Positions 46,273 to 47,486 of a stretch of DNA of 64,000 bases are shown here, piece after piece. The position numbers were made by a program, and so were the translations under genes. Position 1 is the first letter of the stretch, and every line of letters starts with the position of its first letter. The notes under the pieces are model-generated. The model was not told where the DNA came from. It did no database searches and worked only from the letters and a program-made list of their open reading frames with translations. The DNA is taken from assembly GCF_056746865.1 (NCBI RefSeq), contig NZ_CM163382.1. The stretch is one strand, 5' to 3'.

Positions 46273-46566
46273 TTATTGATTATCAACAGGAAGAAAAGAA
46301 ACCAAACGCACCCCATCCAAATCCACCGGAATACGTCTATTTTCACCCCAGGTCTGAAATTCAAAACCCGACTCGGTATTGGTCGCCCAGGCCATTACCA
46401 CATTTCCGCAACCTGCCAGTTGAGAGATTTGCTGCCAGATCATCTCCCGAATACGTTTGGACGTATCTCCGACATAAACACCGGCACGCACTTCCAGGAG
46501 CCAGATCGCGAGCCGTCCACGTAAGCGCGGAGGGACATTTTCTGTAACAACGACGACCATACTCAT
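46273..46566 (-). CDS. cas2: CRISPR-associated endoribonuclease Cas2 (I-E)
   Basis: 97 aa [29 protein letters not shown]...; overlaps cas1 end; adjacent to leader. Confidence 0.9.
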
Positions 46567-47486
46567 CCGCCGCGTCCCCGGTGACCGCTATCGCCCAGCG
46601 TTTCAGGTTCAGGGATGGCAGGCGGTAACATATCCGGCGCGGGTTGTGGTGGTTCAATTTCACCTGCGGCAAGCACTTCCTCGATTAACGGAATTAATTT
46701 GCCCGTTAACTTACTGCTACGGAAAATATCACGACAGGCCAACCTGACTTCTTTATCTGGTTCTGCGGGTTGCCTCGCTGCTATTTCAAATGCCTTTGGC
46801 ACAACCGAATCAAATTTAATGATATCGGCTATGTCATAAACAAATGAAAGCGGTTTGCCACTATGGATAAATCCAATAGCGGGCGCTTATCCCGCGGCTA
46901 ATACTGCCGCTTCAGAAATACCGTACAGACATGATGTGGCAGCACTGATGCAGCGATTCACAACATCGCCTTTTTCCCAGTCTTTAGGATCGTATTTGCG
47001 ACCATTCCATTTCACACCATATTGTTTCGCCAGTAATGCATACGTCTGGCGAACGCGGGATCCCTCAATTCCACGTAGCTGCTCCACTGAACGGCGAGCT
47101 GGCGGTGGCTCACGAAAACGTAATTCATACATTTTGCGCACCACCTTCAGACGTAGATCTTCCGTTAAAGCCAGCTTTGCCTGGTAGAGTAACTTATCAG
47201 CACGCGCCCCACCGGGTTGTCCGGAAGAGTAGACGCGAACACCCGCTTCACCGACCCAGACCAGTAGCGTCCCCACCGTGGCGGCCAGATGCACCGCCGC
47301 GTGGGAAACTCTCGTTCCCGGTTCGAGCATAATGCAGGCGACCGATCCCACCGGAATGTGCGTGCGGATCCCGGTTTTGTCGATCAGCACGAAAGCGCCG
47401 TCCAGTACGTCGATTTGACCGTACTGGAGGAAGATCATAGAGGTGCGATCTTTTAACGGGATCGGACTCAGTGGTACAAACGTCAC
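46563..47486 (-). pseudogene. cas1: cas1 interrupted by in-frame TAA at codon 200
   Basis: 199-codon and 79-codon ORFs in the same frame separated only by TAA (plus coords 46887-46889); both halves read as Cas1. Confidence 0.8.

Follow-up and report, generated by a model that had tools for sequence, protein, structure and literature searches.

A type I-E CRISPR-Cas locus within a 64,000-nucleotide stretch of Escherichia coli DNA (hereafter the window) carries a cas1 gene that belongs to the Cas1e family by sequence and context, yet is, as judged from its reading frame, a cas1e pseudogene. A single TAA codon interrupts the gene at codon 200, and the same allele is present in many other E. coli genomes. 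We hold it very probable that this is an inherited TAT-to-TAA pseudogene that is passed on within a clonal lineage, and that the locus has undergone further decay at cas5e in the genome described here. The features of the locus and of the adjoining mobile element are collected in Table 1.

Table 1. Features of the CRISPR-Cas locus and the adjoining island, in window coordinates.
Feature	Position	Strand	Evidence or remark
CRISPR array with 18 repeats (29 nt each) and 17 spacers (32 nt each)	45111..46176	-	Repeat type GTGTTCCCCGCGCCAGCGGGGATAAACCG
Leader region, between cas2e and the first repeat	46177..46272	-	Position only
cas2e, intact, 97 aa	46273..46566	-	TIGR01873, 131.6 bits
cas1e pseudogene, 924 nt, type I-E, non-K-12 cas variant	46563..47486	-	Translation, NCBIfam, K-12 alignment
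cas1e untranslated remnant, codons 201-307 and TGA	46563..46886	-	Still encodes H208, D218 and D221
TAA nonsense codon, codon 200	46887..46889	-	Changed base is gene nt 600, window position 46887
Translatable N-terminal part of cas1e, 199 aa	46890..47486	-	GTG start; with E141, without H208, D218 and D221
cas6e, intact, 216 aa	47483..48133	-	TIGR01907, 290.9 bits; coordinates from 100% identity to 118UI
cas5e, 5'-truncated, without its first 63 nt	48115..48798	-	TIGR01868 match beginning at profile position 21
Last 14 nt of tRNA-Gly (glyU), CTTCGCCCGCTCCA	48792..48805	+	First 7 nt, CTTCGCC (48792-48798), common with cas5e
Phage-like integrative island, running past the window end	48799..64000	+	Same island at glyU in SCU-105 and others
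Island tyrosine integrase	48931-50184		
Island DUF927 primase	54566-56692		
IS200/IS605 insertion in the island	~57412-59059		
Virion-protein-like gene of the island	59693-62224		

Translation of the minus strand from 46563 to 47486 yields 199 codons, a TAA triplet, 107 further codons and the natural TGA. An earlier sequence-only reading of this DNA had reported the in-frame stop at plus-strand positions 46887-46889, which is borne out, and had counted 105 codons beyond it, which is a trivial slip. In a listing of open reading frames, the gene is divided into a 199-aa frame with a GTG start (46887..47486) and a 79-aa remnant starting at 46802, where a GTG at codon 229 provides the earliest in-frame start 3' of the stop. 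The identification of the gene as cas1 in that reading was likewise correct. The N-terminal 199 amino acids match the NCBIfam model TIGR03638 (cas1_ECOLI) with 270.9 bits, above the curated cut-off of 215.6, and the post-stop remnant continues the same model at profile positions 198-268. When reconstructed with X at position 200, the protein is colinear with K-12 Cas1 (YgbT; structures 3NKD, 4P6I and 5DS4) over residues 1-304 (E = 7.6e-175). Alignment to these structures places a tyrosine at position 200 of K-12 Cas1, within the segment LAAGYAPAIGF, in agreement with the earlier reading. The gene resembles K-12 cas1 in its colinearity, its residue numbering and its context in the order cas6e-cas1e-cas2e-leader-array, and both the adjacent cas2e and the type I-E repeat array expected of a Cas1e gene are present. 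However, the uninterrupted frame of about 305 amino acids typical of the family is broken at codon 200, and the four residues of its active site are not encoded on one polypeptide. On these two grounds we classify the gene as a pseudogene.

The ancestral state of codon 200 can be read from close relatives. From 34563 to 48798, the window is 100.000% identical to E. coli 118UI over 14,236 bp, whereas comparison with the intact cas1e alleles of 675SK2, 28Eco12 and 2022S01-140 reveals a difference at one of 924 bases, namely nucleotide 600, which is T in those strains and A here. Because nothing else distinguishes the alleles, the ancestral codon was TAT, encoding Tyr200, and the one-base change from a tyrosine codon that the earlier reading had proposed agrees with this comparison. 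All five of the five intact relatives fetched encode the same Cas1 protein, WP_000144858.1, whose gene is one nucleotide removed from the cas1e of the window. Relative to both K-12 Cas1 and WP_000144858.1, the window gene differs in having TAA at codon 200, in encoding residues 1-199 only and in losing three of four catalytic residues. The gene thus carries a disabling change relative to an intact orthologue and has received it by descent, as is characteristic of a unitary pseudogene.

The default worry for any single-base nonsense change is that it reflects a sequencing or assembly error in one record while the real gene is intact. Nothing specific to this locus favours such an error, and we give it next to no credence. 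The exact 81-mer centred on the TAA occurs in 141 of 5,426 complete E. coli genomes, which were assembled independently, and the region that it covers is present in 2,218 of them. In addition, the exact 199-aa product is encoded on at least 1,000 public contigs and has several NCBI accessions (e.g. BBS71461.1), and the allele is linked to one cas haplotype. Carriers were obtained from several continents and hosts, and the full 924-nt gene finds 100%-identical matches in many complete genomes. The resequencing proposed in the earlier reading is thus not needed. Single-mismatch versions of the 81-mer make up 12 of 60 entries in an evenly spaced sample of the matches, and all five of those fetched carry TAT.

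Every carrier genome fetched combines the TAA allele with the same Cas5e and Cas6e proteins (WP_000085079.1 and WP_000281464.1), and this pair was found in none of the intact relatives fetched. The linkage of the allele to one Cas5e/Cas6e pair indicates a probable single origin followed by clonal descent. All carrier cas1e alleles fetched are identical throughout, which would point to a recent origin, and they offer no decay beyond the stop that might independently reveal relaxed selection on cas1.

Published typing data exist for several relevant strains. EF5-18-41 is an ST69 strain (PMC8350485) and RM14516 belongs to phylogroup D, O17:H18, ST6507 (PMC10562709). Moreover, the best matches of contigs from ST69 draft genomes were 118UI, NMBU-W13E19, WP8-S17-ESBL-12 and SCU-313 (PMC7952442), and all four of these carry the TAA allele. 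The allele therefore marks an ST69-related lineage of phylogroup D, the typed carriers being ST69 or phylogroup D, and the ST69-related lineage is counted among the major ExPEC clones (PMC11597047). We envisage that a single T-to-A transversion at coding-strand nucleotide 600, in an ancestor of ST69 and its phylogroup D relatives, would have produced the cas1e pseudogene, and that the TAA would have been inherited clonally since.

The mutation itself is already recorded in public annotation. In each of ten carrier genomes opened (118UI and nine others), where the sequence is 100% identical to that of the window, RefSeq/PGAP labels the gene as cas1e, pseudo, with the remark ‘internal stop’. A full-text literature search that covered the stop in cas1, CRISPR in ST69 and the junction in cas5e returned no publication on this stop, and it is not mentioned in recent E. 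coli CRISPR surveys that cover ST69 (PMC11597047, PMC12736100). In the first of these surveys, almost all type I-E systems, including those of ST69 isolates, are scored as having eight cas genes (PMC11597047).

The active site of E. coli Cas1 comprises E141, H208, D218 and D221, and replacement of any one of these by alanine abolishes nuclease activity (PMC4046053). In the window, where the numbering is the same as in K-12, E141 is encoded 5' of the stop and the other three residues 3' of it, in keeping with the earlier statement that the truncation precedes conserved catalytic residues. The product is predicted to end at residue 199, such that the N-terminal domain and E141 would be kept but the C-terminal helical domain, including H208, D218 and D221, would be lost. 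Given that three of four catalytic residues are missing, the Cas1-Cas2 integrase should be dead and unable to insert new spacers, and among functional readings a loss of spacer acquisition has the best support. Both cas2e and the 18-repeat array remain intact, as had also been noted. The ATG of cas2e overlaps the TGA of cas1e as ATGA, and cas2e translation is thus probably coupled to that of cas1e. This overlap suggests that the intact cas2e has probably lost its translational coupling, and the termination of translation 321 nt upstream probably lowers Cas2 synthesis too.

The array would then be a frozen record that changes by spacer loss only. The array of the window is identical to those of 118UI, Q65, 2017C-4173W12, PK8275 and EF5-18-41. 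Comparison of 12 carrier arrays, that of the window and those of 11 fetched genomes, showed each to be a subset of a single spacer order, 1-11, 33, 34, 12-17, with internal or leader-side deletions as the only differences among them. A novel leader-proximal spacer was seen in none of these 12 arrays. One carrier, M7424, keeps the internal spacers 33 and 34 between spacers 11 and 12, and neither is found in the window or the remaining carriers. Compared with the ancestor of the lineage, spacers are therefore already missing from the window array. Arrays that change by loss only are consistent with a dead integrase without constituting proof of one. We rejected frozen arrays as proof of dead adaptation because 675SK2 and 2022S01-140, whose cas1 is intact, also share one array. 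The pattern does not discriminate between the two states, since type I-E arrays of E. coli are generally static even when cas1 is intact, and slow array turnover is typical for this system (PMC2886076).

Functional Cas1 might nevertheless be made in amounts sufficient for adaptation if the stop were leaky or bypassed by ochre suppression, by readthrough or by reinitiation to give a split Cas1. Beyond the stop, the frame is fully preserved and the sequence unaltered, most carriers have interference genes annotated as intact, and low-level UAA readthrough is compatible with the sequence. However, the carriers do not differ anywhere in the allele, so that the preservation of the post-stop sequence carries no information, and termination at UAA is normally efficient in E. 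coli. A split Cas1 was rejected since the earliest in-frame start, at codon 229, lies past H208, D218 and D221, and thus any reinitiated fragment would lack all three residues. A nearby suppressor tRNA is ruled out for the window, because no whole tRNA gene, suppressor or other, is present in its 64,000 nucleotides. The lack of novel spacers at the leader end of the 12 carrier arrays likewise counts against a functional bypass, which we consider very unlikely. Truncation with loss of spacer acquisition remains the reading that we prefer.

A second lesion is evident in the window genome. Identity to 118UI ends at window position 48798, which corresponds to nucleotide 64 of cas5e, and beyond this point lie the end of glyU and then the integrase gene of the island. 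The crossover falls within a 7-bp core, CTTCGCC, that is common to the 3' end of glyU and to cas5e. We propose that an island bearing a glyU-specific integrase recombined at this look-alike core inside cas5e, an event that would have removed the first 63 nt of cas5e and parted cas6e-cas1-cas2 from cas7, cse2, cas8e, cas3 and the operon promoter. None of cas3, cas8e, cse2 and cas7 is adjacent to cas5e in the window, and the contiguous set of eight intact genes that defines a complete type I-E locus is not found there. The annotations of 118UI and of the further carriers examined give cas3, casA, casB, cas7e, cas5e and cas6e as intact, and all seven genes other than cas1 are intact in these genomes. 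Because the junction in the window separates cas6e-cas1-cas2 from the cas genes upstream, Cascade function and interference are also expected to be lost in this genome, which would leave it more impaired than loss of adaptation would by itself.

SCU-105 and other genomes carry the same island at glyU, where about 143 kb separate it from the cas locus. We considered whether a large deletion might have brought glyU and the cas genes together, and rejected this because the island is positioned head-to-head with cas5e. This orientation requires an insertion or an inversion, and hence the junction in the window would represent either an insertion of the island or an inversion between glyU and cas5e. 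Only the integrase-side junction falls within the window, and both arrangements fit it because the other end of the island lies beyond position 64000. An insertion would be denoted by an attR-type junction of the form ...CCCTTCGCC joined to GGGGGCATCG, followed by the 5' fragment of cas5e and cas7.

Further genes of the island encode Ant/Bro anti-repressors and SSB. Its IS200/IS605-type element comprises two ORFs, one tnpA-like on the minus strand and one tnpB-like (402 aa) on the plus strand, and such genes are missing from the island where it lies at glyU in SCU-105. Some genes of the island are very large, with a product of 843 aa in the window (59693-62224) and products of 686 and 918 aa encoded next in SCU-105. 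The 843-aa product matches a PHROG ‘head protein’ family and includes a transglycosylase-like segment. Neither a capsid nor a terminase gene is obvious in the visible part of the island. This, together with its primase, SSB, Ant/Bro and large genes, suggests that the island may be a satellite or a defective prophage.

The same crossover in cas5e was encountered in other genomes. In ETEC1747, a related island of about 10 kb resides inside cas5e with both junctions visible, one of which reads GACGCACTTCGCC joined to CGCTCCA... and the other ...TTCCCTTCGCC joined to GGGGGCATCG (at 20144-20161 and ~30245-30260 of the fetched locus). The cas background of ETEC1747 is different, with 31 differences in cas1 and TAT at codon 200. 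The integrase-side junction with one SNP (TTGAGCGGGCGAAG) was found in GCA_031020925.1 (1-100) and SRR17709973 (1-52), both of which are TAA carriers. In another TAA carrier, SRR23378764 (9900-10023), the cas5e core leads into yqeG and the yqeF-kduID-araE-lysA cluster with no island between. We read this flank as the sequence natively downstream of glyU, and the arrangement as a putative glyU-cas5e inversion of roughly 140 kb. Junctions of this kind are rare, occurring in one of 5,426 complete genomes and a few draft assemblies. Because the crossover recurs in ETEC1747 and other assemblies, cas5e appears, on the evidence of these junction sequences, to be a recurrent secondary attachment or recombination site for a glyU-specific integrase. 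This site may be new to the literature, as no paper on integration into cas5e was found in the full-text search.

Protein markers for the junction were also considered. The 231-aa Cas5e product specific to the junction had no match in look-ups, and a 225-aa Cas5e product with a GTG start was rejected as a marker since its matches include intact loci with 1-nt indels in 5' homopolymers. Single-nucleotide deletions in the 5' G- and C-runs of cas5e (e.g. GGGG to GGG, CCCCC to CCCC) are present in several short-read assemblies, three of them confirmed TAA carriers, and are located about 30-60 nt upstream of the GTG at codon 21. These deletions represent either independent further decay or assembly error.

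Instead of arising through neutral decay in a silenced system, the loss of cas1 function might have been positively selected, for example because it stops self-targeting, or primed adaptation against plasmids that benefit a multidrug-resistant ExPEC clone. Two observations favour selection: the lineage in which the allele is fixed is very successful, and it has sustained further independent hits in the form of element junctions in cas5e and possible cas5e frameshifts. However, degraded cas loci are common in Escherichia and Salmonella (PMC2886076), which fits the neutral loss of a system silenced by H-NS. Hitch-hiking during clonal expansion would explain the frequency of the allele equally well, and its single origin means that there is no convergence at cas1. 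We therefore regard selected loss as improbable. A broader conjecture, to which we likewise assign a low probability, is that selection has dismantled CRISPR-Cas in the ST69 and phylogroup D lineage, beginning with the loss of adaptation, and that the island uses the CTTCGCC of cas5e as a real alternative att site and thereby knocks out Cascade. If this were true, the recurrence of the crossover in the unrelated cas background of ETEC1747 would reflect targeting and not accident.

Degraded type I-E loci have been described before. In Escherichia, Shigella and Salmonella, 17 partial systems were counted against 23 complete ones (PMC2886076). The locus in the window resembles the degraded loci of Touchon and Rocha (2010; PMC2886076) in having a cas pseudogene beside a recognisable array and a disruption by a mobile element. 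It differs from them in its first lesion, a single clean nonsense mutation of cas1 that is fixed in a large ExPEC lineage in which the other cas genes are mostly intact. The second lesion differs as well, being a site-specific junction with a tRNA-targeting island instead of an IS insertion. A temperate phage of Streptococcus pyogenes reportedly integrates into a CRISPR repeat (Varble and co-workers, 2021), and the two cases are alike in that an integrase uses a sequence within the CRISPR-Cas locus and immunity is disabled. Here, however, the site is a rarely used 7-bp look-alike of the glyU 3' end in cas5e, and the normal site of the element is glyU. Nothing in the present data shows that the site in cas5e is preferred or selected.

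The significance of the cas1 finding itself is low, since it concerns an ordinary inherited pseudogene mutation in a widespread E. coli lineage. Its practical value is small: surveys of gene presence count eight cas genes in strains of the TAA lineage, which should nevertheless be recorded as incapable of spacer acquisition, and the frozen array provides a stable marker of the lineage. Because these strains constitute a natural cas1-null lineage in which the interference genes are annotated as intact in most members, they could serve as a control for roles of Cas proteins that are independent of adaptation. The apparent recurrent use of cas5e as a secondary att site by a glyU-specific integrase offers a modest lead, in that it would be a concrete and testable example of a mobile element disabling the CRISPR-Cas operon of its host.
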